Shown one piece after another: positions 26,351-62,501 of a DNA stretch of 64,000 bases; within the stretch, counting starts at the first letter, position 1; every line of letters begins with the position of its first letter. A program made the position numbers and the translations under genes. Origin of the DNA: Deltaproteobacteria bacterium (GTDB lineage Bacteria; Myxococcota_A; Polyangia; HGW-17). The stretch spans positions 623 to 64,622 of the forward strand of contig JAQICJ010000292.1 of assembly GCA_027858615.1 (NCBI GenBank), read 5' to 3'. The notes under the pieces are model-generated. The model ran no database searches, was not told the DNA's origin, and saw only the letters and a list, made by a program, of their open reading frames with translations.

Positions 26351-26928
26351 AATTCTTGAAGTCCGGTATTTTTGGTAGCTGAAAAAAGAATCGGAGGTGG
26401 CATCTGGGGAAGTTTCTTTTGATACTGAACAAGCAGGTTGCCCCTTTTGTTTTTAGGGATTTTATCTACTTTGGTATAGACAACCACTACATTATTGTTC
26501 ATTTGCTGCAGCCATAAAAGAAAATCAATTTCATAACCGCTGATACCTCTTCTGGAATCTATCAGAAGAACAACCAGTTTGAGATATTCTCTGCCGGATA
26601 AATATTCGGTGATAAGCTCGCCCCATTCATCTTGCAGTTTGCTGTTGACTTTGGCATAGCCATACCCTGGTAAATCCGCAAAAATAAAAGGAGCTAACTG
26701 TTTGGTAACAGTTTTGAAAAAATTAATTTCACGGGTTCGCCCAGGGGTCTGACTGATGCGAACTAATTTACGCCGGTTGAGCAGTAATTTGAGCACGGAA
26801 GATTTTCCCACATTTGATTTTCCGGCAATAGCTATTTCGGTCAGTGCCTCCTGGGGAAATTGTTTGCTTGAACGGGCACCGAGTAAAAATTCTGCCTCAG
26901 TGACTTGGGGAATTTTAGATAGGGTCAT
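26323..26928 (-). CDS. engB: Ribosome-biogenesis GTPase YihA/YsxC.
   Basis: G1 motif AGKSNVGKSS, then TPGRTR (G2) and DLPGYG (G3), and the NKxD-equivalent TKVDK. Its start overlaps the stop of the giant TPR gene (ATGA). Confidence 0.85.
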   Translation of the reverse strand: MTLSKIPQVTEAEFLLGARSSKQFPQEALTEIAIAGKSNVGKSSVLKLLLNRRKLVRISQTPGRTREINFFKTVTKQLAPFIFADLPGYGYAKVNSKLQDEWGELITEYLSGREYLKLVVLLIDSRRGISGYEIDFLLWLQQMNNNVVVVYTKVDKIPKNKRGNLLVQYQKKLPQMPPPILFSATKNTGLQELWKSIQNHI

Positions 26929-29900: not shown

Positions 29901-32900
29901 AAAATTGTATTTTTCAACAGCTTTTTCGATGTCGTTGATTTTATCTCTCAGGATATTTCCAGTTTCAAGAATCAGGTCGTTACGTTTGTCGTTGTCAGTT
30001 TCCAGTCCTGTTCTTTGTTCGAGAGTTTTGATTAACTCATACCAGTTCTCGTCTTGTTTATACAAGTCTGAGAGCATTTCCATGGCTTTGATATTGTCAG
30101 GGGAATCTTCAGTGATAATTTTGAGAGCTGAGATAGCTTCGAAGGAATCATTGAGTTTTTCCTGCTGAATTTCTGCCAGTTTGAAAGCTTTTTCAATTTT
30201 GTTTTCTCCATCAAGACGGATGATGTTTTTCAGAATTTCAGAAAGTTCATTATACTTTTCGGTTTCCCGGTAGAGGGATTCGAGAGCACTGAGAGCCTCA
30301 GTGTCTTCGGGGGAATACATCAGCAGTTTATCCCAGGTGGAAATGGCTTCTTCAGGTTCGGAAAGTACGTCCTGACGCAAGCGGGCAAGTTGTCTCAGAG
30401 TGGAAAGAATTTCCTCCTGATCTGTCAGTAGTTCTGACTTTCTAGCCAGGAGAGCAGAAAGTTTTTTCCATTGTTCGGATTCTTGCAACAGTTGAGCAAG
30501 TTCGGTGATTGCCTGCAGATGATCATCACGGATATCCAGCAATTTGTAATAGGTGATGATTGCCTGTTCCCTGTCATCAAGAGTTTCAGCCTGTATTCTG
30601 GCAATTTTCAAGAGAACATCAATTTGCAATTCGGTGTCATAGTTGTCTTTGATGCCTTCCTGAAGAACAGCTATCAATTCTTCCCAATTACCTTCCCTTA
30701 CTGAAATTTCATAGATTCTATTGAGGATTTCACGGTTGGAAGGTTCGAGCTTCCATGCTTCACTGAGGGATGTGAAGGCCCGAGCCAGATCATCCCCCCT
30801 TCCGTCGTAAAGATGGGCGCATTCTTTGAGTAATTCTATTTTGCGATATTCATCTTCGGAAAGTTCAATCTGGATTTCATATACAAAGACAAGTCGTTTC
30901 CAATAATCAAGTTCTTTGTAGATGGGTTCCAGAATTTTAGCCACCCTCAATTTGATGGAATCTTTATCCAGAAGTTTTTCCAGATAATCGATGGTGTTTT
31001 CATTGAGAGGATCGATATTGATGATTTCTTCAAGTCTGAAAACAGCGGAATCTGGATCATCAACTTTTTCATAATAAAGTTCGGCAAGCTTGAGATTGAG
31101 TTCTATGATTTCTGCAGGTACTGTTTTCATTGATACCTGCTGGATCAGGTGTTCGATCAAATCTTCCCAGTTGCCGAGTTTTGTATAGAGTTTGGTTAAA
31201 GCTTCAACCGCTTTTTGTTCTTCTGGTGATGATTCAAGAATTTCGCGATAAACTTCTACTGCCTCTTCGAGTTTATCGAGTTTATCTTCGAGAAGTTCAG
31301 AAATCTTGTACAGATTCTGGTTTTTCTTTTCAGGATCATAAAAGGAGTCGGCTGCATCGCGATATACTTTGAGCAGATTGTCCCAGCGTTCATTTTCAAG
31401 GAGGAGTAACTCAAGTTCTCTGAAGATATTTTCGTTGGAACTGTCACTTTCGAGAATACGTTTGTAATACTTCATGGACTCGTCGATTTTATTCATTTCC
31501 CGGGCATAAATACGGGCAAGGTGAGTCATGATGATAGTGATGTGTTCTCCCGCATAATAGGCATCTTCTACAATTTTAGAGAATACTTCGGTGAGTACTT
31601 CCCATTTATTCAGGAGTTCCGAGAGATTGAGAAGACGATCCCTGACCTTTTGATTGTCAGGTTGTTCCAGCAGCAGATGACCATACCAGGTGTAAGCTTC
31701 TTCAAGATCATCGAGGACAGTTTCATATAGTTCTGCTATGCGGCTGGTAAGTTGGGCTTTTTCTTCGGGAGTTTGTTTAATGTCTCTCTGAATAGAAAGA
31801 ACCTTGATCAGTTTTTTCCATTCCTGACGAGCTGCATAAACAGGCACGAGTACTTCTGAAGCTTCACCGGAGTAATCTTCTTTATCGAGGAAACTTTCCA
31901 GTCTGTTGATGATTTCTTCGGAAGTAGGACTTCCACCCAGAGCGGCACGGAAAGATTCAAGAGCTCTGTCCTGATTTTCGAGATAATCACAGAAAATTTC
32001 ACCCATATTGAATCTGATTTCCACAGCTTCTTGCAATTTGGTGGTGTAGCGAATTCTGTTTTCATACAGTTCTATCAAATTGTCCCATTTTTCCAGATCA
32101 AAGAGAATCTCTTCGAGAGAACGGAAAATCTTGTAGTCGTCCGGCTTGAATTCGAGGATAGTGTTATAGTATTCAATGGCTCGAATTGGTTCATTGAGTT
32201 TTTTCCTGCACAATTCGGCTGCTTTAACCAGAGCGTCATAACGGGCATCAAGATTGTCCAGAGCCATATTGGCCCTTTTTGTATAGATGCCAAGCAGTTG
32301 ATCCCATTGCTCTGTAAGTTCGTAAACCCTTTCCAGAGCATCCATGGAGTGAAAATTTTCAGGGGAAATTTCCAGAACTTTTTCATAATACTTCTGAGCA
32401 ATATCAAGTTTTTCGAGTTCATCTCTGGCAATGTCGGCTATGGTCAGAAATACCTGTTGTTGCAGATTTATGTCGATAATGTCATCGGCTACCTGAATGT
32501 AGAGGTCAACCAATTGTTGCCATTTATCTTCCAGAGCGGCAATGCGCTGAAGTTGAGCAAGAATATCAGGCAGTTCAGGTTCTCCAACAGCTTCCTTGAG
32601 GGCTTGTCCGTAAAAGCCGAAGGCCGAAACCGGTTTACCAAGTTCGGTTTCTTTGATTCCGGCTATTTTAAGGAAGAGGGATACTTTCTGGTGGGGATCA
32701 AAAGCATATCCGGCTTTGAGAACATAAAGGGCTGTAAGTTTTTCCCAATTGTTTTCAAGTTCATAGATAGTTTCAAGAATTTCCGCTGACTGAAGGGCAA
32801 GAGTTTCTTCACCTTGAAGCATGGATTCCAGAGCTGCTTTGGATTTTTCATGGGAGGGATCTTCATCAAGAACATTTCTGTAGTAAAAGATTGCTCTTTC

Positions 32901-35900
32901 AGGTTCTTCAAGATGTACCTGCAGAATATAACCCAGCCTGTAGTTGAGAGAGCGTCGGTCTTCGTCGTTTTCGGTGAGATTGAGTTCTCTTTCTACATAA
33001 TCGAAAACATCGGTCCAATTGCCCGATTGTTCATTGAGGCGGGCAAGATAACGGATAGCTTCGCCATGTTCCGGGTTTTCGTTGAGAATTGAAGTCCAAG
33101 CTTCAATGGCTCCTTCGAGATCATTAAGAGATTCTTCCCTGAGGATGGCAATTCTGGAGAAATAATTGAGTCGTTGTTCTTCATCCTGGGTAAGTTCGAC
33201 TTTTTTGGCCAGAATTTTTACAAGCTCATCCCATTTTTCGATGCGGGAATAAATAAATTCAAGTCGATCAAGAGCTTCGTCATCAGTGGGAAATTCTTCC
33301 AGTAATTTTTGATAGGTTTGAGCGGCTTCCAGAGGAGCATCAAGCATGTCTTCCTGGAGAACTGCGATATTACGGTAAATATCTTTTCGTTCTTCTTCTC
33401 CCTGAGTCCAGTTTAGTTGCTTTTTATAGATTTCAATAATTTCAATCCATTCTTCCATGGATTGATACAGGTTCACCAGAGCCTGGGCAGCTTCGTCCTG
33501 TTTTTGCAACATGCTTTCTTCACCGGCTTTTTCCAGAAGTTTTCTATACCATTCGATGGATTTTTTCGGTTCTTCCAGATGGGTCTCATGGATATCAGCT
33601 ATTTTTTCGAGGTATTCGATGATAAGCAGATTGTTGTCTTCAACTGCTTCAATGGCTTCCTGCCATACTTCTACTAATTTTTCGTAGGAATTGAGAGCAA
33701 TAGCGAGATTTTCGATGGAATCTCTGACATTGGCACTGGCGGGATCAAATTGGATAGCTCGTCGCCATACTTCAAATGCTTTTTCCGGTTCACTGAGTTT
33801 GAGGGTAAGAATTTGGCCGATTTTAGAGAGAATATCAACGGCTTCATAGTTGTCCTGGGTGTTTTCAAGTTTAATTTCCAAGAGATCAACCAATTTTTCA
33901 TGGTTATTTTCATCTTCCATGAGCCGGATGAGAATATCAGCTGCTTTTTGTCTTGTTTCCTTGATTTGAAGCATCTCTTCGAGCATCTGGCGAGTATTTT
34001 CGTGTCTCTGATCGAATTCAAGGATTTCACGGAGAATATCGATGGCCAGATTGGGAGATTCCATTTTGTGCAGGAGAATATCGGCTCGTTTATACATGAG
34101 ATCGATTCGTTCCTGGTCGGAATCAGCATAGATGAGTTCGTCTTCATAGAGGGCGGCCAGATTTTCCCATTTGTCCGATATTTCGTAAAGTCTGATGAGA
34201 GCTTCGAAGGCTTCATTAGATTCATTATCGAGTTCACGCAATTTGGTATATGAGTTGATGGCAGCTTCTACGTTGGCCAGCATATTTTCGTTGAGATGGC
34301 TCAACTTGGTGAGGATATCTTTTTGTTCTTCGGGTTCAACTACAACATCAAGGCGTTTAGTATACAGAGTTTTAAGATCTTTCCAGTCTTCAGAACCGGA
34401 GAAAATTCTTTCGAGAGCAAGAAAAGCGCCTTCATGAAGGGGATCTTCTTCCAGTACGGTAAGATAGAATTTTTGGGCTTCTTCCCGATTGTCTTCGTCA
34501 ATTTCTTCCATGCGGGCAATTTCCCAGGACAGGGAAAGTTTGAGTTTGTCTTCATGGTTTTCTATGTATTCGAGATAAGTTTCTTTGAGAGTGTTAATTC
34601 GTTCATCAAGTTTGGCGAGGGTGTGAAGTTTTTTGCGTACTTCTTCGTCCTCGGGTTTCAGTTTGAACAATTGAATAGCCAGATCAAAGCCCTTGCCCAT
34701 GTCACCTATTTTCTGAGTAGTGATATCGAGAAGTTCCTGGTAAAGTTCAATCTTTTTGGATTCATTTTCTTCTTGTCGGGCAATGACTTCAAGAGCGAAG
34801 GTATAATCTTCCCAGAGTTCTTCTTGCTTGTAATAAGGAAGAAGATGTCCGGCAGCTTCGATTCCGGTCTGGTTGTTTTTTTGATTTTCAAGAATTTCTC
34901 TGATAGCGGCTATAGTTTCTTCGTGCTGGGGAGAAAATTCCAGAACTCTGGCAAAATGGGGCAACGCATCTTCAGGTTGTTCAAGCATGTCTTTGAGAAG
35001 TTCGCCCAGACGGAATTCGAGGTTGATGATTCTTTCTTCTTCCTCAACTTCCTGGATTTCCATTTTAAGGATGCGAGCCAATTCTTCAAATTCATTTTCC
35101 CCGAGATAGAGGCGGTCAAGAGCCTGCAAGGATTTGAGATGAGCAGGATCTATGTCGATAATTTCGTTGTAATAACGAATTGCGCTTTCCTTGTCATCTT
35201 TTTGGATTTCCATGATGGAGGCCATTTTTTCGCGGGCCCAGATGGTTTTTTCGGGTTCGCTGTCTAATTCTATCTGTTTGTTTAAAATTGCTGTAAGTTC
35301 ATCCCACTCTTCTTTGATTTCGTAAATAGAAGCAAGTCCTTCGAGAGCTTTGTGGGATTCTTTATTGATGGCAAGAATTTCCTGGAGAACTGATTCGCCT
35401 TTTTCCAGTTCGGAGAGTTTTTCAATATAAATTTTGGAAAGACGTGAGAGCAGATCAATTTTGTCGTCGCCTTCCATGTCAGGTTTGACCTGATTGTATA
35501 TTTCTGCCAGATCAATCCATTTGTCAGCCTGCTCGGCGAAACTTTGCAATTGCTCAATAATTTGATTGTCAAAAGGGGAAATGAGATAGGCTTTTCCACA
35601 CCACTTGAAAGCTTGAGTGGGATCGCTGAGTTTTTTGTCGTAGCTTTCAATAAGTTTGTGGAGCCATTGCAATTTCTCTTCTTTGCTGTCGGCGTTTTTG
35701 AGCAGAACTTCGTACATATCGGCAGCTTTGTTCCAGCGATTCAACTCTTCATAGAGGGGCAGGAGGTTATCAGCTGCGGTTTTGTTGGTTTCATCGGTTT
35801 TCAGAACTTTTTCGTAAGGCTTGATGGCTCTTTCCGGTTTGCCGATTTTGGTGCGGTAGATATCAGCTACTTTAAAGAGCAGGAAGATTTTAGCTTCAGG

Positions 35901-38084
35901 ATCTTCTTCTCTAGAAGCGTATTGACTTAGAGTTTCGATATATCCCAGCCAATTGTCGTTTTGAGAGAATAAATTTTCCAGTTGTTCCCAATTTTTATTT
36001 TCTGCATAAAGAGTTTTTAAAATTTTGAGAGACTTTGGATGGTTGGGATTGAGTTCGTGAACTCTTTCCCATATTTCCATGGCTTTGGCGCCATAGGATT
36101 TCATTTTGTCAGTGAGGATATTTCCGGTTTTTTCGAGAAGGGGCAGAGCCTCTTCATCGGTGGACATGGAAATTTTGCGATTGAGCATTTCTACCAGAGC
36201 GGGATATCTTTTGTCCCTTCTGTAGAGGAAAATCAGATTTTCCATGGCGTCTATATCGTAGGGATCAACTTCCAGAATGCGATTCCAGGTTTCAATAGCC
36301 AATTTTATGTTGTTAAGGGGGTTTTGAGCAAATTCGGCCAGTTCGACAAGTTTTTCGTGTTTTTCTGATTCGGGGATCAGTTCAAGTTCTTTTTGGCGCA
36401 GGAAAAACAGACCCTTCCAGTTTCTTCTTTGTTCGTAGATGTCTTTGAGACTGTTGATTACTTCGATGTCGCCGGGATCAAATTCAAGAATTTCTTCAAG
36501 GGGCTGAGCAGCCCGATTGGGATTAGAAAGATTTTCGCTCCAAAAATGGGCGATTTGTTTGAGGTATTCTTTTTTGGTGTCGAGCTCTTTGGTATTATCA
36601 GCTTTTTTCTGATAAATGGTGATGACTTCTTTCCATCTTCCCATTTTTTTGTATTTTTCAGAAAGTTCTTCAATGGCCTGTTCATTTTCGGGATCTAGTT
36701 TCAGAACGCTGTTGTAAACATTGACAACCATGGCATCGACTTGCATTTTATCTTCGATAATCTGAGCCATTTTGATGAGGGTGTTTACTCTGGTTTCGAT
36801 GTTATCTTTGGGCAGTGAACGCTCTTCTTTTTTGTAAAGTTCAACCAGGGCATTCCATTTTTCTGTCTTGTGGTAGAGTTTTTTCAACTCTTCTTTGGCT
36901 TCTTCGTGGGCAGGATCCTGCTTGAGAATTCGTTTCCAGACGTCAATTGCCTTGCCGGGGTTAACTTCGATGCTGAATTCAGCTATTTTGCGGGCGAATT
37001 TGACAGTTTCGTTGATGTCGCCTCTGGCTTTGCGCATTGCCTGCTGCAGCATGGAAATATAGCGCATGGGCTCATCTTTTTCGAGGTAATAGGCTTCGTA
37101 AAAATTGAGGAGCAGGGGGGAATCAGGCTCGGTTTTGCGTAATTTGCGGAAATATTGTTCGGCTTTGTCAAGATCTTCCAGTTGTCTCCACCAGATCATT
37201 CCCAATTGGAGATAAATCCCGGGATCGGGGCGACGAGAAGTCTGGATTTCATTTTCATAAAACTCAATCAGATCTTCGGTTTTATCTTGTTGGTTATAGG
37301 CTGAGACAAGCAGAGTTTTAGACTTGGCGTTATCAGGATCTTCTTCTCTTACTTTTTTGATTAGAGTTTCAGCTTCCTGGGGATTTTGAAGGTATTCCAG
37401 CAAGTATTCTGCTGTTTCGAGGGTCAGCAACTGGCGGTTGTCAGGATCTTCAAAAAGATCGAGTTTGGGCTTGATCAGGTTGACAAATTCTTCGTATCTT
37501 TGATTTTCCCTGTAGATGCGACAAAGATGCTTGAGGGCGTCACCGTTGGTTTCATCCTGTTTAAGGGATTGCATGAGCAGAAGTTCTGTCTGTTCTTTGT
37601 CTTCTGCATATTTGGCCGATACTTCCGCAGCTTTGTAGAACATATGAGAAGCCAGCTCTTTTTCTTCAGCGTCTTCGGCTTCAGTGGTGAATTTGGAAAG
37701 CAGCTTTTCGTAATTGCCGGCTTCCAATTCAAGTTCTTCTACTTTTTCGGATAATTTTTCGTCTTCCGGCTGCAATTTGGCAAGTTGGCGGTAAGCTTCG
37801 AGGGAATTGTTCCCTTGCCATAACTCTGATTCCAGCAATTCAGCTTTTCTTTTGATATTTTCAATATTTTCAGGATCTATTTCCAGAATAATATCCAAAA
37901 AAGCCAGGGCAATTCTCAGTCGATTTGACTTGATTGCTTTGCGGAATGATTTTTCCAGAAAAACTACCTTTTCATTGTCAGAAATATCTTCTTGGGCAAG
38001 TTTTTCTTTGATTGTTTCAATCTGGTTGTTGATTTGGGAAGAACTCAGGAGGTTGGTGATTAAGGTTTTGATATCTTTAAGCAT
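26925..38084 (-). CDS. Giant (3719 aa) acidic protein made almost entirely of tandem TPR-like repeats. No signal peptide.
   Basis: A single uninterrupted 11,160-nt frame. Repeats of ~34-42 aa carry a recurring W-(D/E/N)-x-L-(I/V/A)-x-(L/I)-Y helix-turn motif (EKWDELVKIL, ENWEKLTALY, EQWDQLLGIY, EKWDNLIELY, ERWDNLLKVY, GNWEDLIEHL ...). Strongly Glu/Asp-rich. All antisense ORFs inside it look spurious. Confidence 0.85.
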   Translation of the reverse strand: MLKDIKTLITNLLSSSQINNQIETIKEKLAQEDISDNEKVVFLEKSFRKAIKSNRLRIALAFLDIILEIDPENIENIKRKAELLESELWQGNNSLEAYRQLAKLQPEDEKLSEKVEELELEAGNYEKLLSKFTTEAEDAEEKELASHMFYKAAEVSAKYAEDKEQTELLLMQSLKQDETNGDALKHLCRIYRENQRYEEFVNLIKPKLDLFEDPDNRQLLTLETAEYLLEYLQNPQEAETLIKKVREEDPDNAKSKTLLVSAYNQQDKTEDLIEFYENEIQTSRRPDPGIYLQLGMIWWRQLEDLDKAEQYFRKLRKTEPDSPLLLNFYEAYYLEKDEPMRYISMLQQAMRKARGDINETVKFARKIAEFSIEVNPGKAIDVWKRILKQDPAHEEAKEELKKLYHKTEKWNALVELYKKEERSLPKDNIETRVNTLIKMAQIIEDKMQVDAMVVNVYNSVLKLDPENEQAIEELSEKYKKMGRWKEVITIYQKKADNTKELDTKKEYLKQIAHFWSENLSNPNRAAQPLEEILEFDPGDIEVINSLKDIYEQRRNWKGLFFLRQKELELIPESEKHEKLVELAEFAQNPLNNIKLAIETWNRILEVDPYDIDAMENLIFLYRRDKRYPALVEMLNRKISMSTDEEALPLLEKTGNILTDKMKSYGAKAMEIWERVHELNPNHPKSLKILKTLYAENKNWEQLENLFSQNDNWLGYIETLSQYASREEDPEAKIFLLFKVADIYRTKIGKPERAIKPYEKVLKTDETNKTAADNLLPLYEELNRWNKAADMYEVLLKNADSKEEKLQWLHKLIESYDKKLSDPTQAFKWCGKAYLISPFDNQIIEQLQSFAEQADKWIDLAEIYNQVKPDMEGDDKIDLLSRLSKIYIEKLSELEKGESVLQEILAINKESHKALEGLASIYEIKEEWDELTAILNKQIELDSEPEKTIWAREKMASIMEIQKDDKESAIRYYNEIIDIDPAHLKSLQALDRLYLGENEFEELARILKMEIQEVEEEERIINLEFRLGELLKDMLEQPEDALPHFARVLEFSPQHEETIAAIREILENQKNNQTGIEAAGHLLPYYKQEELWEDYTFALEVIARQEENESKKIELYQELLDITTQKIGDMGKGFDLAIQLFKLKPEDEEVRKKLHTLAKLDERINTLKETYLEYIENHEDKLKLSLSWEIARMEEIDEDNREEAQKFYLTVLEEDPLHEGAFLALERIFSGSEDWKDLKTLYTKRLDVVVEPEEQKDILTKLSHLNENMLANVEAAINSYTKLRELDNESNEAFEALIRLYEISDKWENLAALYEDELIYADSDQERIDLMYKRADILLHKMESPNLAIDILREILEFDQRHENTRQMLEEMLQIKETRQKAADILIRLMEDENNHEKLVDLLEIKLENTQDNYEAVDILSKIGQILTLKLSEPEKAFEVWRRAIQFDPASANVRDSIENLAIALNSYEKLVEVWQEAIEAVEDNNLLIIEYLEKIADIHETHLEEPKKSIEWYRKLLEKAGEESMLQKQDEAAQALVNLYQSMEEWIEIIEIYKKQLNWTQGEEERKDIYRNIAVLQEDMLDAPLEAAQTYQKLLEEFPTDDEALDRLEFIYSRIEKWDELVKILAKKVELTQDEEQRLNYFSRIAILREESLNDLEGAIEAWTSILNENPEHGEAIRYLARLNEQSGNWTDVFDYVERELNLTENDEDRRSLNYRLGYILQVHLEEPERAIFYYRNVLDEDPSHEKSKAALESMLQGEETLALQSAEILETIYELENNWEKLTALYVLKAGYAFDPHQKVSLFLKIAGIKETELGKPVSAFGFYGQALKEAVGEPELPDILAQLQRIAALEDKWQQLVDLYIQVADDIIDINLQQQVFLTIADIARDELEKLDIAQKYYEKVLEISPENFHSMDALERVYELTEQWDQLLGIYTKRANMALDNLDARYDALVKAAELCRKKLNEPIRAIEYYNTILEFKPDDYKIFRSLEEILFDLEKWDNLIELYENRIRYTTKLQEAVEIRFNMGEIFCDYLENQDRALESFRAALGGSPTSEEIINRLESFLDKEDYSGEASEVLVPVYAARQEWKKLIKVLSIQRDIKQTPEEKAQLTSRIAELYETVLDDLEEAYTWYGHLLLEQPDNQKVRDRLLNLSELLNKWEVLTEVFSKIVEDAYYAGEHITIIMTHLARIYAREMNKIDESMKYYKRILESDSSNENIFRELELLLLENERWDNLLKVYRDAADSFYDPEKKNQNLYKISELLEDKLDKLEEAVEVYREILESSPEEQKAVEALTKLYTKLGNWEDLIEHLIQQVSMKTVPAEIIELNLKLAELYYEKVDDPDSAVFRLEEIINIDPLNENTIDYLEKLLDKDSIKLRVAKILEPIYKELDYWKRLVFVYEIQIELSEDEYRKIELLKECAHLYDGRGDDLARAFTSLSEAWKLEPSNREILNRIYEISVREGNWEELIAVLQEGIKDNYDTELQIDVLLKIARIQAETLDDREQAIITYYKLLDIRDDHLQAITELAQLLQESEQWKKLSALLARKSELLTDQEEILSTLRQLARLRQDVLSEPEEAISTWDKLLMYSPEDTEALSALESLYRETEKYNELSEILKNIIRLDGENKIEKAFKLAEIQQEKLNDSFEAISALKIITEDSPDNIKAMEMLSDLYKQDENWYELIKTLEQRTGLETDNDKRNDLILETGNILRDKINDIEKAVEKYNFILDFNPDHEQAVAALEKLLDRVEYRNIVAKILEPLYQTKGQNKSLIKLYKLLLEDQADPEKRKVNLRSIAELYLTIQEPMESFKYWGILFKENPENKDAETQLHTIASEKQAWDKLVELYSEIVEEIYDEEIRKKILLTQANIYELSLEDLEGAVRVMQKAVEFMPDNLEILNQLDRLLNQTSKFDELENILQMEANTAFEPDQKSTYFYRLGQLRLEHFENHEGALAAWREALAFSENHELTITALEKLLEKDTPVLSEILDLLQPIYENLGYQEKMVALLKKRIEITKDPIIKSEYIVQAANISQQLGNIEVAFELWGKAVKTTPEEKQYVDEFIKIAEISNKETELIKIVSDILDNKLDEMTAIDLAMLTAQIALNSGDNESVEKLYRFVLNIEPENNKALKHLEEFYRITDEVNKLIEILDKRSEVIFDFEKKETILKEIANLSEQRLEQPQKAIDAWQKLFEQNESKKEVQDQLIRLYEKTENWGKLIDILKVKANYMANDPGLLEVKHKTARLLAEKMDKPNEAEEIWQDTFLMYPSDEVSYEALCSIYKSKEDWDALKDIYFTKLSQTQEETAKVLILENMASLVLNKQEDLFEAGDYYKQIIDIDASNEKAFNKLDEIFIKTERYHDLIQILEKRKDLSNSLGNSEEEVYYLDRIARIWEENLGSADNALEILGEILERDSGNVTALTGMARLYENMEDLEKCQQYLEKAALLEPKGREGAELAFRRGNIALKLGEKETAITRWEDALDLYPEHSEAFSALKKHYEETENKEGLLRLYEIKLPKVEDPEERLPLLLSISELFVQLSASEAAFPYLEEAAKIEPDNIEVKQKLGDTYYASGNHEKSMEIYTDLIDKLKTNRKAKKSLSVIYQRIGKIKKSQEDYAGALEMFNQSRRLNPTNIDNMLSIAGLHENNEELEKAQKIYRAMLFQKLDGIITKSEIYFKIAKIDHSLGNTKKAISSAKRGLSEDPNNQKIKDFLEDIS

Positions 38085-56032: not shown

Positions 56033-56959
56033 ATGCTAAACAAAATAATTATGTTAACACTGGCATTTCTAATTACTTCGACTGCTAAAGGGCAAAGAAA
56101 AGTTCATTTTAAAAAAGGTTTGAAATTTGAATTAAATCTGGATTTTGAAAATGCTGAAAAAGAATTTAAAAAAGCTTGTGCTTTGAAGTCTGGATCTGGT
56201 TGTTTTAAACTAGGATATTGCTACAAAAACGGTACCGGGGTAAAGAAGGATAAAATAAAAGCAGCAAAATATTATAAAAAAGCCTGTGCTTTGAAGTCTG
56301 GAGCTGGTTGTTTTAAACTAGGGGATTGCTACAAAAACGGTACCGGGGTAAAGAAGGATAAAACAAAAGCAGCAAAATATTATAAAAAATCCTGTGCGTT
56401 GAAGTCTGGATCTGGTTGTTTTAAACTAGGGGATTGCTACAAAAAAGGTACCGGGGTAAAACAGGATAAAACAAAACCAGCAAAATATTATAAAAAATCC
56501 TGTGCGTTGAAGTCTGGATCTGGTTGTTTTAAGCTAGGGGATTGCTTAGGGGATTGCTACCAAAACGGTTACGGGGTAAAGAAGGATAAAACAAAAGCAG
56601 CAAAATATTATAAAAAAGCTTGTGCTTTGAAGTCTGGATCTGGCTGTTTTAAACTAGGGGATTGCTACCAACATGGTTACGGAGTAAAGCAGGATAAAAC
56701 AAAAGCAGCCATGTATCATAAAAAATCCTGTGCTTTGAAGTCTGGAGCTGGTTGTTTTAAACTAGGGAGTGACTACAAAAACGGTACCGGGGTAAAACAG
56801 GATTTAACAAAAGCAGCCATGTATTATAAAAAAGCCTGTAAATATGGGTATCAAGGAGGCTGTAGACTAACCCCGGATCCAAGAAAGCGGCCTTTTACTG
56901 GAACCAGACCAACCAATTACTGTAAGCCAACCAAGCCTCCGTATATTCCTCCTTCCTGA
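56033..56959 (+). CDS. Sel1-like repeat (SLR) cysteine-rich protein of the Helicobacter Hcp type, secreted.
   Basis: Signal peptide MLNKIIMLTLAFLITSTAKG. Seven consecutive ~37-aa units KAAKYYKK(A/S)CALKSG(S/A)GCFKLGDCYKNGTGVK(K/Q)DKTK, with paired Cys per unit as in HcpA/B/C. Confidence 0.85.
   Translation: MLNKIIMLTLAFLITSTAKGQRKVHFKKGLKFELNLDFENAEKEFKKACALKSGSGCFKLGYCYKNGTGVKKDKIKAAKYYKKACALKSGAGCFKLGDCYKNGTGVKKDKTKAAKYYKKSCALKSGSGCFKLGDCYKKGTGVKQDKTKPAKYYKKSCALKSGSGCFKLGDCLGDCYQNGYGVKKDKTKAAKYYKKACALKSGSGCFKLGDCYQHGYGVKQDKTKAAMYHKKSCALKSGAGCFKLGSDYKNGTGVKQDLTKAAMYYKKACKYGYQGGCRLTPDPRKRPFTGTRPTNYCKPTKPPYIPPS
56167..56850 (+). repeat. Tandem array of ~111-bp near-identical DNA repeats (about six units) encoding the SLR units.
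   Basis: Visible unit-to-unit DNA identity well above 90%. Includes a 12-bp micro-duplication GGGGATTGCTTA|GGGGATTGCTAC at 56537-56560. Confidence 0.85.
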
Positions 56960-57108: not shown

Positions 57109-58347
57109 ATGTCCCAAAAACGTTCCTGGTTTAATGTGCATCCCGATCTTATTAAAAAATGGAAGAAACAACTAAACGATTATCGGGGCAGCGGTGGAAT
57201 TCAAATGGATATTGATCAATATTCCGTATTGTTGCAAGATAGCAAGATCCCTCTTCGTATTTTGGATAAGGGAGGAATCAGTATCTTGAAATATTTTAAT
57301 GAACTCCCTGTTCTCCCTACTGATTTCACAGCTCTGCTTTATATCGACGAAATTGATTTTGCTTGCAAAATGGCACAGCGCATTTATTCCAGAAAAGAAA
57401 AACAACTCAAGGACCATAAATTTCTTCCCCATCCTGTTTATTTGCTTGCCAACAGTTCCACTTTTAAACCGGAACAAATTGAACAATATTGTCAGATTCT
57501 TCTCAATCTCGAAGATCCTGGAACTTTACTTGATATTCTAACTTATGTGGCAATTTTGGAATTTGTGTTTTCTAAGTCGTGGATTGCCAAACGGGTGTTG
57601 CAAAATTACTGTTCCGGGCCAAGAGGTGCTTCAGATCTGCTTGATGGGGCCAAATATTGGAAACTCATCTTCAACAGCGACAACCAATTCCAAAAATATC
57701 GCAAAAAAGCTTTTGAATCTGAGGATGCTCCTTCCAAATGGAATAGTTTGGCAGTGTATATGTTAAAAGAAGAAAGAAATCTTGAGGTAGTTGAAAAATA
57801 TTACAGTAAATTCATAAAAGACAGAGAGGAAGATAAAATTTACAACTGGACGTTTTTTGCCAATTATGTCTGGTATGTTTTTAATGACTCCGATTTGGTG
57901 GTTACTTATTTGAACAGAGTTTCCACTGAGACAGGGGTGGATTCTCTGACCCACCTGGCAGCTTGCTGGATGAGAATTGGAAACAATCCCTCAAAAGCCA
58001 GAGAAACCATGGATAAAGCAATTTTGCAAGCCACAACTCCCGAAGATTTTATTGTCTGTGCTCGGACACTTTTAGATGTGTTTGACGATGCCAAACAAGC
58101 ACAAAAATACCTGGATAAAATCGATTTTGATGATCTCGATCCTTTTCGCAAACTTCGCTACACCATGGTTGATAAAAAACTTAACGGCGTTATAGCGGAA
58201 AAAGAACATCCTCCCCAGGAAAGTTATAACCAGCTCAAAGAGTTGTTACAACCGGAGCCGGGAACCACAGATGATTTCATGACCGATATAGCCGCAAGTT
58301 TCCTCAAAAACCTCGATCTCCCCTTCGACCTCGACGACGAAGATTAA
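57109..58347 (+). CDS. Hypothetical 412-aa cytoplasmic protein with acidic C-terminus (...DLPFDLDDED).
   Basis: Intact ORF. A start ATG at 57109 is preceded by a purine-rich stretch. No recognisable domain. Confidence 0.45.
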   Translation: MSQKRSWFNVHPDLIKKWKKQLNDYRGSGGIQMDIDQYSVLLQDSKIPLRILDKGGISILKYFNELPVLPTDFTALLYIDEIDFACKMAQRIYSRKEKQLKDHKFLPHPVYLLANSSTFKPEQIEQYCQILLNLEDPGTLLDILTYVAILEFVFSKSWIAKRVLQNYCSGPRGASDLLDGAKYWKLIFNSDNQFQKYRKKAFESEDAPSKWNSLAVYMLKEERNLEVVEKYYSKFIKDREEDKIYNWTFFANYVWYVFNDSDLVVTYLNRVSTETGVDSLTHLAACWMRIGNNPSKARETMDKAILQATTPEDFIVCARTLLDVFDDAKQAQKYLDKIDFDDLDPFRKLRYTMVDKKLNGVIAEKEHPPQESYNQLKELLQPEPGTTDDFMTDIAASFLKNLDLPFDLDDED

Positions 58348-59501
58348 CCCTCCTGGTTGCATCCCACAAAATCCAGATAGTTTTCCCTGTTGATAACTTC
58401 ATACTCAGCTTCAGGGTAGGTTTTTGACCACAGGGCCGGTGCCTTGGGTTTTTTGTTGCCGAACTTGAATTCATATCCGAACAGTTTTCCCTCCCTTTCT
58501 TCCACAAGATCGATTTCCTTTTGATCCCAGGTTCTCCAAAAATAAAGATTATGAAAAATTTCGCAGTATTTGTTTTTTCTCAGTCTTTCATTGAACAAAA
58601 AATTTTCCCAGAGCTGACCTTTGTCATTGCGGATATGCAGCGGATTAAAGTTGGAAATAAGCGCATTCCTGATGCCATTGTCGTAAAAATAGTATTTATT
58701 CTTTTTGACGATTTCTTTTCTCAAATTTCTGCTGAACCCTGAAAGACTATAAATTACAAAGGATTTTTCCAGAATATCCAAATATCTTCCCACTGTTTTT
58801 CCGGCAACTCCAATATTTTTTGCAATTTCCGAAAGAGACACTTGACTGCCTGTCTGAAAAGCAAGTAGTCGCAGCAGATCAAATATAACCCTGCTGTTTT
58901 TTATTTTATCAAAAGCTATAATATCTTTGAGTAGATAGGAGTGAGCCAATTCGTCGAGAATTAACCCTTTTTCCTGTTTTGAGGAAGCTGTGACGACTTC
59001 GGGATAAGCACCGAAAATCAGCAAATCCTCAAGTTTTTCTTTTAGTTCGAACTTGTTGTAAATTTGGGAAAGTTCCAGATGGGAGAGGGGAAACATGGTG
59101 AGAGTTCTTTTGCGTCCTGTTAAAGGTTCTCCAATATTTCCGGCCAGGTCAAAAGATGAAGATCCGGTGGCTATAACCATAAGCTGCGGATGAGAATCGA
59201 CCAGCAGTTTAAGCCCCGTTCCAATATTTTGTACTTTCTGGGCTTCATCTATAACTACAAGCTCGTAACCTGATGCGTATTCTGAGATTTTATCGGGGTT
59301 ATTTGATGAAAATATCTCTGCAATGCGAAAATCTTCGCCTGTGTCATATCTGTATTTTAAAGAGGTTTTGGCAAGAAAGTTTTTAACCAGAGTAGTTTTT
59401 CCAACCTGTCTCGGTCCAAAAATAACTAAAACTTTACCTTTTTTCAGATACTTATCAAGATTATCATAAATTCTGGGAATCATATTATTCTCCTGTTTCA
59501 T
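58344..59501 (-). CDS. AAA+ ATPase of the AAA_14 + DUF4143 type (ATP-binding protein).
   Basis: Walker A VIFGPRQVGKTTLVKNF and Walker B LVVIDEAQK. The C-terminal DUF4143-like region, ~385 aa, is typical of this family. Confidence 0.8.
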   Translation of the reverse strand: MKQENNMIPRIYDNLDKYLKKGKVLVIFGPRQVGKTTLVKNFLAKTSLKYRYDTGEDFRIAEIFSSNNPDKISEYASGYELVVIDEAQKVQNIGTGLKLLVDSHPQLMVIATGSSSFDLAGNIGEPLTGRKRTLTMFPLSHLELSQIYNKFELKEKLEDLLIFGAYPEVVTASSKQEKGLILDELAHSYLLKDIIAFDKIKNSRVIFDLLRLLAFQTGSQVSLSEIAKNIGVAGKTVGRYLDILEKSFVIYSLSGFSRNLRKEIVKKNKYYFYDNGIRNALISNFNPLHIRNDKGQLWENFLFNERLRKNKYCEIFHNLYFWRTWDQKEIDLVEEREGKLFGYEFKFGNKKPKAPALWSKTYPEAEYEVINRENYLDFVGCNQEG

Positions 59502-59553
59502 TCCAAGAAAATTATTACCCCATTCCCCATAATAGTCAAATTATAAAGAACGT

Positions 59554-59614
59554 CACTCCGCAAAATAATCGAATTACGCGGAACTGCACTCCGCATAATC
59601 ATCAAATTGCATGG
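59554..59614. promoter_or_regulatory. Two imperfect ~28-bp direct repeats (CACTCCGCAAAATAATCGAATTACGCGG / CACTCCGCATAATCATCAAATTGCATGG) in the divergent AAA-ATPase / fic control region.
   Basis: Seen in the sequence. Confidence 0.4.
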
Positions 59615-59675
59615 AACCAAAGAAAAGAAAAAACACCTAACGGGGTTATGATTTTCTGTGATTTTGCAACCCCAG

Positions 59676-59698
59676 CTTGTGACAACTTGTGACACAAG
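59676..59698. promoter_or_regulatory. Iteron-like CTTGTGACA-A-CTTGTGACA ending in the 13-bp perfect palindrome CTTGTG-A-CACAAG, upstream of fic. A related, degenerate copy lies at 59813-59851. Three further direct copies of ACTTGTGACAC lie immediately 3' of fic (60966-61001).
   Basis: Seen in the sequence. Confidence 0.5.
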
Positions 59699-59889
59699 AT
59701 ATTGGAGTAACATCCCAAGCAGCTTTTTATGTACCAATCACAAATGAACAACAAATCTTTAAACGTTTATATAATCAAAACGTATTAAAACCCTAACGGG
59801 GTTACGTTTTTTGCTTGTAACTTGTGTCAACATGTGTCATATGTTGTTTAACAACCCCTTTTCCATTGATTTCGAAGTGAGAATTTTAA

Positions 59890-60966
59890 ATGAATATATC
59901 ACAACCCAAATTTCAGATAACCAATTCCATGACTTGTAATATTGCCGCCATTGAAAGGGTGCGTGGTTTTTTTGAAGCTGTAGATTTAAATAGTGAGTGG
60001 ATAAAAATTTACAGTCAGAAGGCTTTGTCCAAAGAAGCACACCACACAACCCACATTGAAGGAACTCAATTAACCTGGCAACAGGCTGACGCCATCTGGA
60101 ATGGAAAACAATTGGAAGATGCAGATCAAGAAGATGTAAGAGAACTTCTGAATTACAGGACTGCTTTCGAATACGTCTCTAAGCACATTGACAATGAAAA
60201 CCCTGTAACTGAAAAATTTATCAGAAAAATCCACTATAAATTAGTGGATAAAGTTCGTAGTGGAAAAGCAGCTCCCGGTATATACCGTAAAATTCCAAAT
60301 TATGTCATAAATTCTACAACAAAAAAAGTTATCTACACTCCCCCTCCTGCCCAAAAAATCCCTGATATGATGTCACAATTGGTAAAATGGTTGAATTATG
60401 AAGAAAATATTCACCCCTTATTGATCAGTGGAATCGCTCAATTCTGGTTGGTTCATATTCACCCTTTCCTTGATGGTAACGGCAGAACATCGAGGTTATT
60501 GTCAACAGCAGTTTTATACGGTTCAGGCTATGATTTTAAGCGCTTGTTCTCCCTGAGTGAATACTATGACCGCAATCGAAGGAATTTTTACAAATCTCTG
60601 CAAAGCGTCAGAGAAAACAATCTGGATATGACCCTATGGCTTGAATATTACCTGAAAGGACTCAACGTACAGTTAAATGAACTAAAATTGTTTGGGGAGA
60701 AAATGATTCGAAAAGATAACCTGGTAAGGAAGTACAAACTTAATGAAAGACAAAATCTTGCTCTGGAATACATCATTAATAATGGGGATTTAAGTATTAC
60801 AGAATACCAGAATTTATGTCCCCAGGTAAATCGGCGTACTTTACAACGAGATCTTGCAAAATTGACAAATAAACAAATAATAACAGAGCAGGGAAAAACA
60901 AATAATAAAATCTACCTTATTAAACATCTAATTCCCCCTCAGCCAGGATCAGGTTTTTACTGCTGA
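59890..60966 (+). CDS. fic: Fic-family protein (adenylyltransferase-type), class II with an N-terminal inhibitory helix. The C-terminal ~70 aa are likely a winged HTH.
   Basis: Canonical Fic motif [14 protein letters not shown] (HPFx[D/E]GNGR). Inhibitory (S/T)xxxE(G/N) motif in [10 protein letters not shown] upstream. Length 358 aa. Confidence 0.9.
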
Positions 60967-61208
60967 ACTTGTGACAACTTGTGACACCAACTTGTGACAC
61001 CATAAACTCCAAACCACCACCGCTGCCACCACCTGCGCCAAAAAATTGTGCTCTCCCGCTGAATGTTGTGCTCTCCCATTTTTCAATCGTCAGATCTTTC
61101 CTCTTGTAATGATAGAAATTGCACTATATAGCAAAATATCGACAGGGAATGATTCTGTTGACAAAAAGTACTCTTTTGATATTTATGCACCGATGGAAGG
61201 GTAAGAGG

Positions 61209-62501
61209 ATGTACATGAATACTGCGGCACAGCTCAGGATCGAATTTATTCAAAAAACCAGTTATGGGGTTATTTTTACTCTTTTGTTGTATGTTTTATT
61301 GGTAACAGGTTGTGATTCAACATCAACAGAGGCTGAACACGACGCTGGTATGCCCGATGTGACCGAAGATGGCCAAGTTTTTGACGCGTCAGAAGATGTG
61401 AAAGATGTGGAAGACCACGTCGACACGATTGATGACGGAGGCAATGAGGAACTGATTCCTTTTGAGCCTCTCACGGGAGTATCAGATCATGTAGTTGCTT
61501 TGCACCATTTGAAATATAGAGAAGAGAGCTCTGTGCTGTCTCCCTGGGTAGCGAATCGGGCCTATCCTGGATATGAGTATTTTCTTAATGATCACAATCC
61601 TGATGACTGGGAGGAGAGCGAAACGGAACATGTTTTTCTTGGAGAGATTTGGGCTCCACCTCCTCATGAAGTTGAGTTTCTGGTGCTTCTCAGCGCCGGA
61701 CAGCAAGGAGCCTTGCTTGATAGACAGGATTACACAGCCATAATCACGGGCCAGACAGACAACTGGCATGAGAACCCTTCACATACGGGGACAAACCTTC
61801 TGGAGGGTTGGCAGACTATAATCACCAAAGACGCGACCATAGCAGGCCTCTCTTTAGCCGGACAATTTATCGCTGACGTTGGGGTGAATAATTCAGCATT
61901 TTTCGGAATGACTCCTCAGAACACCTACATGGCTGTTTTGTTTGATGCCTGTTTTTATTACGAGATGTCCAGTGAGAAAAAACATGAGCTTCTGGACAAC
62001 TATTTGGAATGGTTAATGTCCCGCGCCGATAACAATAGTGCACAGCGGATGGAGGCAATCTATCTTGCCGGGGCGAGCCGAGGTGGAGCGCTTGTCTCAA
62101 GGATGGGGATTGAGCTCACCCATAACCCTCGATGGAAAGCTGTTCTCTCTGGCGTTCAGGTGATTGTCAGCGCGTTTGATGGCGTAGCTAATGAGGAGGA
62201 AGGGGAGCTCTTTGCGACAACCACACAGGTGCAAAACCCACTGGATAACAGTAAGTTTTGCTATGCAACAACCTTGCATGACGAGGTGGACCCAAACGTC
62301 CCTCTGCATCTTTTGCAAACCGCAGGTGGAGCACCAGTAGTACCAGTAGTAGCTCCCAAACGCGCCTTCTATTTTGAAACTATTCCGGAACTTCTCGAGT
62401 TTCGCTGGGTTAACCTGATCCACTCCGAGATAGGGAGAGTATGGCACGACGAGACTGCAGCAGCGCACCTGCGTTGGCTCCAGCGTTGGCTTATGGAATA
62501 A
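61209..62501 (+). CDS. Hypothetical acidic lipoprotein encoded in a GC-rich (~50%) island. The ORF track gives 61119; the start is more likely the ATG at 61209.
   Basis: AAGAGG lies 6 nt upstream of 61209. Signal and lipobox ...LLYVLLVTGC + DSTSTEAEHD. Local GC is clearly above the window average. No recognisable domain. Confidence 0.5.
   Translation: MYMNTAAQLRIEFIQKTSYGVIFTLLLYVLLVTGCDSTSTEAEHDAGMPDVTEDGQVFDASEDVKDVEDHVDTIDDGGNEELIPFEPLTGVSDHVVALHHLKYREESSVLSPWVANRAYPGYEYFLNDHNPDDWEESETEHVFLGEIWAPPPHEVEFLVLLSAGQQGALLDRQDYTAIITGQTDNWHENPSHTGTNLLEGWQTIITKDATIAGLSLAGQFIADVGVNNSAFFGMTPQNTYMAVLFDACFYYEMSSEKKHELLDNYLEWLMSRADNNSAQRMEAIYLAGASRGGALVSRMGIELTHNPRWKAVLSGVQVIVSAFDGVANEEEGELFATTTQVQNPLDNSKFCYATTLHDEVDPNVPLHLLQTAGGAPVVPVVAPKRAFYFETIPELLEFRWVNLIHSEIGRVWHDETAAAHLRWLQRWLME

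Follow-up and report, generated by a model that had tools for sequence, protein, structure and literature searches.

A clade-specific iteron array directly after the stop codon of winged-helix Fic genes, a candidate cis element of a defence-type enzyme

Short direct repeats (iterons) on both sides of a single gene may belong to that gene, to its neighbour, or to the genome at large. This question is raised by a stretch of 64 kb of contig JAQICJ010000292.1 (the window; coordinates are positions in the whole stretch), in which a gene for a Fic protein (fic) is divergent from an ATPase gene across a spacer of 388 bp and has iterons upstream and downstream. A preliminary description of this DNA had read them as a cassette or recombination boundary, or as a set of autoregulatory operators. 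It appears that the answer lies mainly on the 3′ side, where an iteron array directly follows the fic stop codon in 15 of the 16 assessable loci of this Fic subfamily, the window included (Fic identity 45-100%); the exception is the sister genome described below.

Iterons directly after the fic stop codon

In the window, the word CTTGTGACA has exactly five matches (59676, 59686, 60968, 60978, and 60991), against an expectation of 0.45, and five were reached in none of 100 shuffles. All of them surround fic, two upstream and three right after the stop, and the 20-nt block CTTGTGACAACTTGTGACAC is identical on either side of the gene (59676-59695 and 60968-60987). The downstream units form an array that begins 1 nt past the TGA stop codon.

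Other fic loci were fetched for twelve database proteins of the same 346-aa subfamily (57-63% identity) and for four relatives (45-57%) from IMG/VR, which held six subfamily loci, four of them assessable. The sources comprise Desulfobacterales, Cloacimonadales, Hydrogenedentes, Mariprofundaceae, and metagenomic lineages. Further members were found neither in phage records nor in E. coli genomes, and plasmids yielded only distant subfamilies. Besides the window, the array is present in L008, L010, L012, L013, L015-L018, and L020-L025 (handles of the loci fetched). It consists of three to six tandem iterons on the coding strand, five being the modal number, and starts 0-8 nt past the stop codon or overlaps it. 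The stop codon lies inside the first iteron in L017, L018, and L024, and the coding region of L012 carries one more iteron-like word at its extreme 3′ end. The iterons are 9-10 bp long (consensus CTTGYGACA), with a GACA core that never varies and a 5′ half that differs from clade to clade; the array of L021, CTTGCGACAaaCTCGCGACAaaaCTTGTGACAggCTTGCGACAaaaCTTGTGACA, may serve as an example. Their spacing alternates between 10/11 and 12/13 bp in the patterns 10, 13, 10, 13; 11, 12, 11, 12; and 10, 13, 11, 12, all of which keep a super-period of 23 bp, so that sites 1, 3, and 5 lie 23 bp apart in all clades. Inverted copies (GTGTCG / GTGTCC) occur after the L016 and L018 arrays.

Several comparisons tie the array to fic. 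In the 24 loci that were fetched first (356 kb, both strands), every five-unit chain and every chain of CTTGYGACA-type words lay directly 3′ of fic, and the other chains of three to four units were without the word. The genes next to fic are unrelated among the loci, and Fic is the only protein common to all. A 3′ array was found at none of eight more distant, SoFic-like plasmid genes for Fic proteins with a winged helix-turn-helix (wHTH) domain (22-31% identity); 15/16 versus 0/8 corresponds to a hypergeometric p of ~1e-5 by hand calculation. In addition, the 5′ half of the iteron tracks the Fic clade and the wing sequence of the wHTH domain: the wing TNQLVY goes with CTTGYGACA, DPTRHY with GCTGTGACA or CTATGACA, KKAARY with TTTACGACA, ARQSLY with ATCGCGACA, and LKGAYY with TATAGGACA, and the recognition helix NRRSLQRDL and the GACA core are constant across clades.

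The comparison shows the 3′ array to be a cis element that is linked to fic, conserved, and clade-specific; the window carries a shortened version of it. The window count and scans of a genome collection and of metagenomes bear out that the iterons go with fic and do not form a genome-wide repeat. On the other hand, bracketing of fic by iterons is not a general design: the 14 other subfamily loci have them on the 3′ side only, with none within 1.5 kb upstream. An operator in the gene's own promoter is therefore probably not what is conserved; the window and its sister do have an inverted pair of modules upstream of fic. No earlier description of 3′ iterons at Fic genes was found in the searchable literature; the conserved array is apparently undescribed, and the Fic gene itself is of a known kind.

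Some of these loci have further features of their own. In L010 (3781-4038), L013 (3823-4014), L012, and L021, fic overlaps the end of a small upstream gene, which encodes an 85-aa HTH_3 protein, a 63-aa open reading frame (ORF) product, or a 23S_rRNA_IVP four-helix protein; this operon arrangement is absent from the window. A conserved sequence of ~100-140 nt follows the array in L013 (5086-5190), L022 (2253-2392), and L025 (4099-4240), with 71-87% identity between different samples. By eye it resembles the T-arm of a tRNA or transfer-messenger RNA (tmRNA) (GGAATCGAACCCACG, opposite strand), and ARAGORN called no gene; a 21-nt stretch of it in L022 matches the annotated tmRNA gene of L020 near the 3′ end. 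Real tmRNA genes adjoin fic in L013 and L020. The T-arm-like sequence may be the remnant of an island attachment site.

The Fic protein, its neighbourhood, and the sister genome

The window Fic is a protein of 358 aa. Its active site fits the pattern HxFx(D/E)GNGRxxR (residues 191-202, 60460-60495) and is invariant in an alignment of 30 sequences, and the Pfam Fic profile scores 67 bits against a cut-off of 24. An inhibitory motif, TTHIEG (T53-x3-E57-G58; 60046-60063), is located N-terminal to the Fic core in the same chain; T53, E57, and G58 are also invariant in that alignment, and Fic_N reaches 28.3 bits (cut-off 26.7). These matches and residues agree with the preliminary description in identifying the protein, by sequence, as a class II autoinhibited enzyme with an N-terminal alpha-inh.

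The structure was modelled with AlphaFold2 (AF2) from 30 homologues, with a mean pLDDT of 76.7 that rises to ~90 in the C-terminal domain (residues 286-344). This domain comprises three helices (286-298, 303-309, and 315-327) and a beta-hairpin (331-344) in the model, and the last 11 residues (348-358) are disordered. It is confidently predicted to be a wHTH domain (~60736-60927), as had been surmised from the sequence, and the full-length Foldseek matches, namely 4RGL, SoFic, CbFic2, and CccR (~20% identity), are in line with this prediction. On its own, the domain gives sub-threshold Pfam matches, to HTH_DeoR (0.0015), TrmB (0.00055-0.014), and HxlR, and generic wHTH matches in a fold search (E = 0.1-0.7).

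With regard to the defence assignment, the PADLOC SoFic profile PDLC03963 matches residues 40-348 (2.2e-62). The NCBIfam SoFic equivalog NF046030 reaches 84.4 bits against a cut-off of 550, far below what orthology with SoFic proper demands, and the window Fic is therefore taken to represent a separate subfamily of the SoFic kind; its identity to the SoFic structure 3EQX is ~20%. The adjoining ATPase is itself a PADLOC defence candidate (PDC-S01, 1.1e-146), and relatives of fic lie beside type I restriction-modification (R-M), RloB/AAA_21, and RhuM genes. Together with the deletions in the sister genome, the PADLOC matches uphold the earlier idea of a defence-like, variable island.

The closest Fic (89% identity) belongs to Myxococcota/Polyangia metagenome-assembled genomes (L003, L004, and L006; the sister genome). 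Upstream synteny with the sister extends over UvrA, ExbB/D, TonB, TolB, HU, and a lipoprotein (87.8% nt identity), and the fic block (59517-60932) is 86.6% identical. Since fic has diverged like the core genome, it appears to have been inherited vertically and not inserted recently. The Sel1 and ATPase genes are deleted in the sister, as is the 412-aa ORF except for a remnant of ~190 nt, and the 33-bp repeats are retained despite the deletion of the ATPase gene. The sister thus keeps fic without the ATPase, which is dispensable for fic; the ATPase is absent from all 15 fic loci besides the window, and a functional pairing of the two divergent genes is not supported.

The homology block shared with the sister has its left edge at the 33-bp repeats, not at iterons, and its right end ~35 nt before the window fic stop. 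In the sister, no iterons directly follow fic and a CNNM gene is found there instead. The last ~12 codons of the window gene (~60931-60963) are a lineage-specific extra tail, which is homologous to the 3′ flank of the sister gene (z = 3.5); this alignment suggests read-through into the flank, stopping at the TGA one base before the first iteron. A cassette or recombination boundary is accordingly no more than weakly indicated: homology does end at the iterons on the 3′ side, but the left edge lies elsewhere and fic is vertically inherited.

Table 1. Features around fic in the window.
Feature	Coordinates	Strand	Remarks
412-aa orphan ORF, acidic tail	57109-58347	+	no family match
AAA_14/DUF4143 ATPase gene	58344-59501	-	AAA_14 1.3e-27, DUF4143 8.4e-42; PADLOC defence candidate PDC-S01
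Three tandem 33-bp repeats	59521-59617	+	each with internal inverted repeat; beside ATPase start
Module A, ~70 nt	59628-59699	+	contains iterons 59676-59685 and 59686-59695
Module B, short variant	59787-59846	+	inverted relative to module A; 44 nt upstream of fic ATG
fic	59890-60966	+	Pfam Fic 2.4e-18, Fic_N 1.9e-6
3′ iteron array, three ACTTGTGACA(C) units	60967-61000	+	spacing 10 and 13 bp
TTGTGCTCTCCC x2 direct repeat, 20-bp period	61046-61077	+	between iteron array and 430-aa lipoprotein gene, upstream of the latter

All the repeats listed in the preliminary description are present, with small corrections (Table 1). The direct repeats beside the ATPase gene, given as two of ~28 bp, are three units of 33 bp (59521-59551, 59554-59584, and 59587-59617; 71-74% identity to the reference copy). 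The second of the upstream elements (59819-59846) is present, but in place of a plus-strand iteron pair it holds TGTGTCA-type words with a GACA core on the minus strand, 11 bp apart. Module A is composed of an A-run, the hairpin word TAACGGGGTTA (59638-59648), a T-run, a GGGGTT...AACCCC stem, two iterons, and CACAAG, which completes the 13-bp palindrome CTTGTGACACAAG (59686-59698). Module B contains the second TAACGGGGTTA (59794-59804) and a T-run, followed by the two minus-strand words, and its region is 89% conserved over 100 nt with the sister. The elements 59819-59846 and 59673-59701 form a 29-nt imperfect inverted repeat (72% complementary). Downstream of the array, the copies of TTGTGCTCTCCC start at 61046 and 61066.

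The sister genome has further copies of the module (84-95% identity), all in one orientation, at the 3′ ends of three other genes. The general order is an A-run, CCTAACGGGGTTA, a T-run, a GGGGT...ACCCC stem, and CTTGTGACAACTTGTG[A/T]CACAAG, and module A is 86-88% identical to modules of L003 and L006 that follow unrelated genes. Pairs ~180 bp apart occur downstream of the CNNM gene and of a 538-aa lipoprotein gene, both of whose stop codons lie inside the module (CC-TAA-CGGGG), and a single copy precedes a tandemly duplicated Zn-ribbon gene; the palindromes of L003 are T-centred. In L006 (2671-4245, minus strand), each copy of the duplicated Zn-ribbon gene is preceded by the module and a leader of ~160 nt, and the second copy is truncated (150 versus 207 aa). 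Among 185,579 species-representative genomes, the module pattern gave five matches on one 6.8-kb contig that continues the sister locus and otherwise a chance match, and only a chance match was obtained in JGI metagenomes. The module is a local, lineage-specific amplification and not a dispersed repeat. An intergenic repeat of the REP, BIME, MITE, or Correia kind was rejected, as the window copies are only at fic and the scans found no wider spread.

Several other readings of the module were tried. Rfam, searched at a permissive threshold with L003 and with L001 (identical to the window locus), returned nothing relevant. RNAalifold predicted hairpins in the module on both strands, but essentially no compensatory changes, and the sole base pair changed on both sides is broken in three of seven copies. 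Derivation of the module from the fic 3′ flank was rejected: the distance from TAA to iteron is the same (37-38 nt), but the sequences before the iterons are dissimilar (z < 1). A small ORF, of 79 aa in the window, can be read on the minus strand across the module and the 33-bp repeats. Every copy keeps it open as a consequence of nucleotide conservation, but neither its start nor its stop is consistent, and it was treated as non-coding. Scans for sigma-70 promoters and terminators showed no enrichment over shuffles, with only a small AACCC-TAAC-GGGTT hairpin flagged in some copies.

Among the other genes of the window, a Sel1-repeat lipoprotein-like gene (56033-56959) has six near-identical repeats (KACALKSGSGCFKLGDCY...). 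The gene for a putative 430-aa lipoprotein (61209-62501) has a GC content of up to 50-53%, compared with ~38% in the surroundings, and is followed by an extracytoplasmic function (ECF) sigma gene and a possible anti-sigma gene. Neither this lipoprotein nor the 412-aa ORF product matched any family in Pfam, PADLOC, and NCBIfam profile searches. An ORF of 3,719 aa (26925-38084, minus strand) is far larger than any other in the window.

Signs of mobility were also noted around fic. Direct repeats of 20-88 nt flank fic and its array in four of 14 loci, the other ten being without them. In L008, L015, and L020, these repeats are 42-88 nt of local sequence with 78-90% identity (L008, -52..-11 and +98..+139 relative to fic; L020, -146..-59 and +63..+150). 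In L020, the promoter of the downstream ATPase gene and its first codons seem to be covered by the repeat. Moreover, one identical Fic (the P0060 population, L025-L034) occurs in two upstream contexts; together with the flanking repeats, this makes mobility of fic and array as a unit possible. In L025-L034, a RhuM-Fic pair stands beside either type I R-M HsdR/YgjP or DUF6880/PRiA4_ORF3, which suggests recombination at RhuM within a defence island. A second PRiA4_ORF3 and a truncated RhuM are annotated ~1.1 kb downstream, which may reflect a duplication. Integrase genes were not called at the fic loci, the one exception being a tyrosine recombinase next to an outgroup gene. An integron attC site was rejected: the sequence ACCTAAC, which holds the stop codon, is RYYYAAC-like, but there is no complementary distal GTTRRRY and the iterons are direct.

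Possible function of the array and rival explanations

The explanation that we consider somewhat more probable than improbable is that the 3′ array is a multi-site platform for the winged helix of Fic itself, setting the activity or expression of a toxic defence enzyme. We infer binding of Fic to the iterons from three precedents and from the arrays themselves. CccR of Yersinia pseudotuberculosis leaves a footprint on inverted repeats at its own gene (PMC9755527), SoFic binds specific DNA upstream of its own gene (bioRxiv 10.64898/2026.07.09.737422), and DNA binding induces dimerisation of CbFic2 of Coxiella burnetii and switches it from AMPylase to deAMPylase (PMC10628234). On the side of the arrays, the 23-bp phasing and the occasional inverted copies argue for duplex DNA rather than RNA as the ligand. 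Briefly, the array as double-stranded DNA would dock several copies of Fic head to tail through the DeoR/TrmB-like winged helix, and newly made Fic would thereby be placed in cis on the 3′ flank of its own gene. By analogy with CbFic2, CccR, and SoFic, both the oligomeric state of the enzyme and its activity would be set by the array, which might in addition keep transcription from entering or leaving fic. In this lineage alone, the upstream modules, which form an inverted pair around the promoter of fic, would contribute true autoregulation. Copies of the module could bring the fic promoter and neighbouring genes within reach of Fic and, as direct repeats, could drive the deletions and duplications that separate the two genomes.

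A number of observations weigh against such a platform. The closest relative, L003, is without an array directly after fic, yet its fic is intact, and the window array has three units only. The binding itself is argued by analogy, and a C2-symmetric Fic dimer would be expected to prefer inverted repeats, as CccR does, over head-to-tail ones. A DNA site does not require the fixed strand or the strict abutment or overlap of the stop codon, and both would fit an RNA element as well. The co-variation of wing and iteron comes from ~6 clades and is confounded by phylogeny. Moreover, a reverse search of IMG/VR with the iteron pattern taken from fic returned 120 viral contigs, ~45 of which carry tandem CTTGCGACAC-type arrays (period 10-12, 3-7 units, with 5-7 in some; loci including L035, L046, L067, L075, L141, L146, L103, and L076), with no Fic gene or homologue of the C-terminal domain near them; the word and the array form are thus not exclusive to Fic. 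In L146, the array even lies inside a replication-initiation gene.

In a stronger form of the platform idea, which we regard as distinctly unlikely, the array would be a self-encoded DNA 'antitoxin' or sensor, whose five phased sites hold the enzyme inactive or deAMPylating until it is released on infection. Phage arrays of the CTTGCGACA-type word (origin or packaging iterons) might compete for the winged helix, or host DNA might be degraded, and the release would trigger AMPylation and abortive infection. If this were true, a toxin would be held in check by a non-coding DNA element. Such a case could bear on a 2025 paper, in which an antitoxic activity just downstream of EcSofic was ascribed to a 47-aa ORF (AS1) whose protein could not be purified (PMC12249575): a DNA antitoxin could explain the neutralisation by the AS1 region.

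Four other accounts of the repeats were weighed. The array could act as RNA in the 3′ untranslated region of fic, binding Fic or a host factor or serving as an antitoxin-like or stability element coupled to translation termination. Its constant position on the coding strand, 0-8 nt past the stop or overlapping it, would suit this, and no terminator is seen by eye between stop and array (no terminator scan of those loci was made). Sofic is also toxic, with the antitoxic activity mapping just downstream of EcSofic (PMC12249575), and type III toxin-antitoxin (TA) systems employ tandem RNA repeats. However, direct repeats of 11-12 nt cannot pair mutually and no Rfam match was obtained; the compensation of 10/13 by 11/12 that preserves 23 bp looks like the helical phasing of a duplex, inverted copies are found upstream of fic and after some arrays, and the C-terminal domain resembles DNA-binding wHTH domains, all of which make an RNA element unlikely. 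A type III TA system proper was rejected, since it needs repeats of ~34-36 nt upstream of the toxin and a terminator, and the repeats here are 10-13 nt long, downstream, and abutting the stop. A further account, in which the iterons serve another protein (a phage or plasmid replication initiator, a packaging-type protein, or a host factor) and the fic array is a decoy or sensor, draws on the frequency of the same word and period in viral contigs without fic, where one array is inside a replication-initiation gene and others are beside terS-like genes (in the L035/L046/L141 group, between terS-like and exonuclease genes). Those matches were, however, selected by a pattern derived from the fic iterons, and in most of the phage arrays the period is uniform (10, 11, or 12), in contrast to the alternating 23-bp pattern. 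The iteron variants follow the Fic clade across phyla and different hosts, and no second protein is common to the fic loci; we hold this account to be very doubtful. A replication origin with Rep-bound iterons was rejected as well: tandem iterons are present, but there is no rep gene in any fic locus.

The view of the preliminary description, that the iteron-bearing elements are recombination sites and the repeats around fic mark cassette boundaries, gains from the sister genome, where modules at the 3′ ends of the CNNM, 538-aa lipoprotein, and Zn-ribbon genes separate unrelated genes, the first two genes have their stop codons inside the module, and the third is duplicated together with it. 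The end of window/sister homology where the iterons begin, the flanking repeats of L008, L015, and L020, and the single Fic in two upstream contexts would also fit. Nevertheless, the 16 subfamily loci have no conserved integrase or transposase gene in the vicinity of fic, and attC architecture is missing from the module. The synteny of fic and its core-like divergence also speak against this view, as do the position of the left breakpoint at the 33-bp repeats instead of the iterons and the absence of flanking repeats from 10 of 14 loci. The duplication itself is accounted for by homologous recombination between 70-nt repeats, and recombination sites seem to us a decidedly improbable explanation. 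Least credible by far is a locus-specific divergent control region, in which the repeats would be operators co-regulating fic and the ATPase gene. The inverted pair of modules does lie inside the divergent spacer, and the ATPase has an HTH-like stretch (HTH_11, 0.0016, sub-threshold). This idea is largely refuted by the comparative sequence data, as the sister keeps the modules, the 33-bp repeats, and fic after loss of the ATPase, and the 3′ array is conserved at loci without such an ATPase.

For defence-type wHTH-Fic proteins, a cognate DNA motif has hitherto been lacking and the restraint of their toxicity is an open question. The array offers a concrete candidate ligand for SoFic-type enzymes in a subfamily that is very large (~7,500 database proteins match the query at E <= 0.001; the array was checked at 16 loci only). 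For annotators, it means that a defence system listed as a 'single gene' may have a non-coding part, and the sister comparison shows how sites copied into neighbouring intergenic regions can remodel an island.

Comparison with known systems

The nearest precedent for a site at the gene itself is CccR (PDB 7XUX; PMC9755527), also a toxic class II Fic protein with a C-terminal HTH domain that binds specific DNA next to its own gene, and a full-length structural match to the window Fic (Foldseek 1.3e-9). The two share only ~20% identity, and the CccR site is one inverted repeat in the promoter, AGATAATCAT-N26-ATGATAATCT, whereas here ~5 head-to-tail iterons form a 3′ array and most family members have nothing upstream. 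CbFic2 (PDB 8CIL), a wHTH-Fic and the best match by TM-score (0.65), would be the mechanistic template for a DNA platform that sets activity. It is, however, a secreted pathogen effector of a different subfamily (22-23% identity), for which the experiments used non-specific DNA only and a cognate motif is not known (PMC10628234).

SoFic/EcSofic, a single-gene anti-phage system (Millman et al. 2022 preprint), resembles the window Fic in its PADLOC match and domain order. The enzyme is toxic, the neutralising activity of EcSofic maps immediately downstream, and SoFic binds DNA near its own gene. On the other hand, it belongs to another subfamily, the eight SoFic-like plasmid genes are without 3′ repeats, the window subfamily was not found in E. 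coli genomes, and no small downstream ORF is conserved at the loci of the window subfamily.

Outside the Fic family, winged helices of the OmpR/PhoB type recognise the Pho box, which is made of 7-bp direct repeats with a period of 11 bp. There, too, a winged helix reads tandem head-to-tail repeats, which are separated by A/T-rich spacers and follow each other at roughly one turn of the helix. The wHTH family is another one, however, and Pho boxes are located in promoters, number two to four, and have a response regulator instead of an enzyme as their binding protein. Cis-acting initiators such as RepA of plasmid R1 (CIS, oriR) and lambda O (ori iterons) have their binding sites immediately 3′ of their own gene or within it. 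These proteins start replication, whereas Fic modifies proteins and nothing else in the locus suggests a replicon; the likeness lies in the placement of a winged-helix protein's iterons directly downstream of or within its gene, which favours action in cis of the nascent protein.

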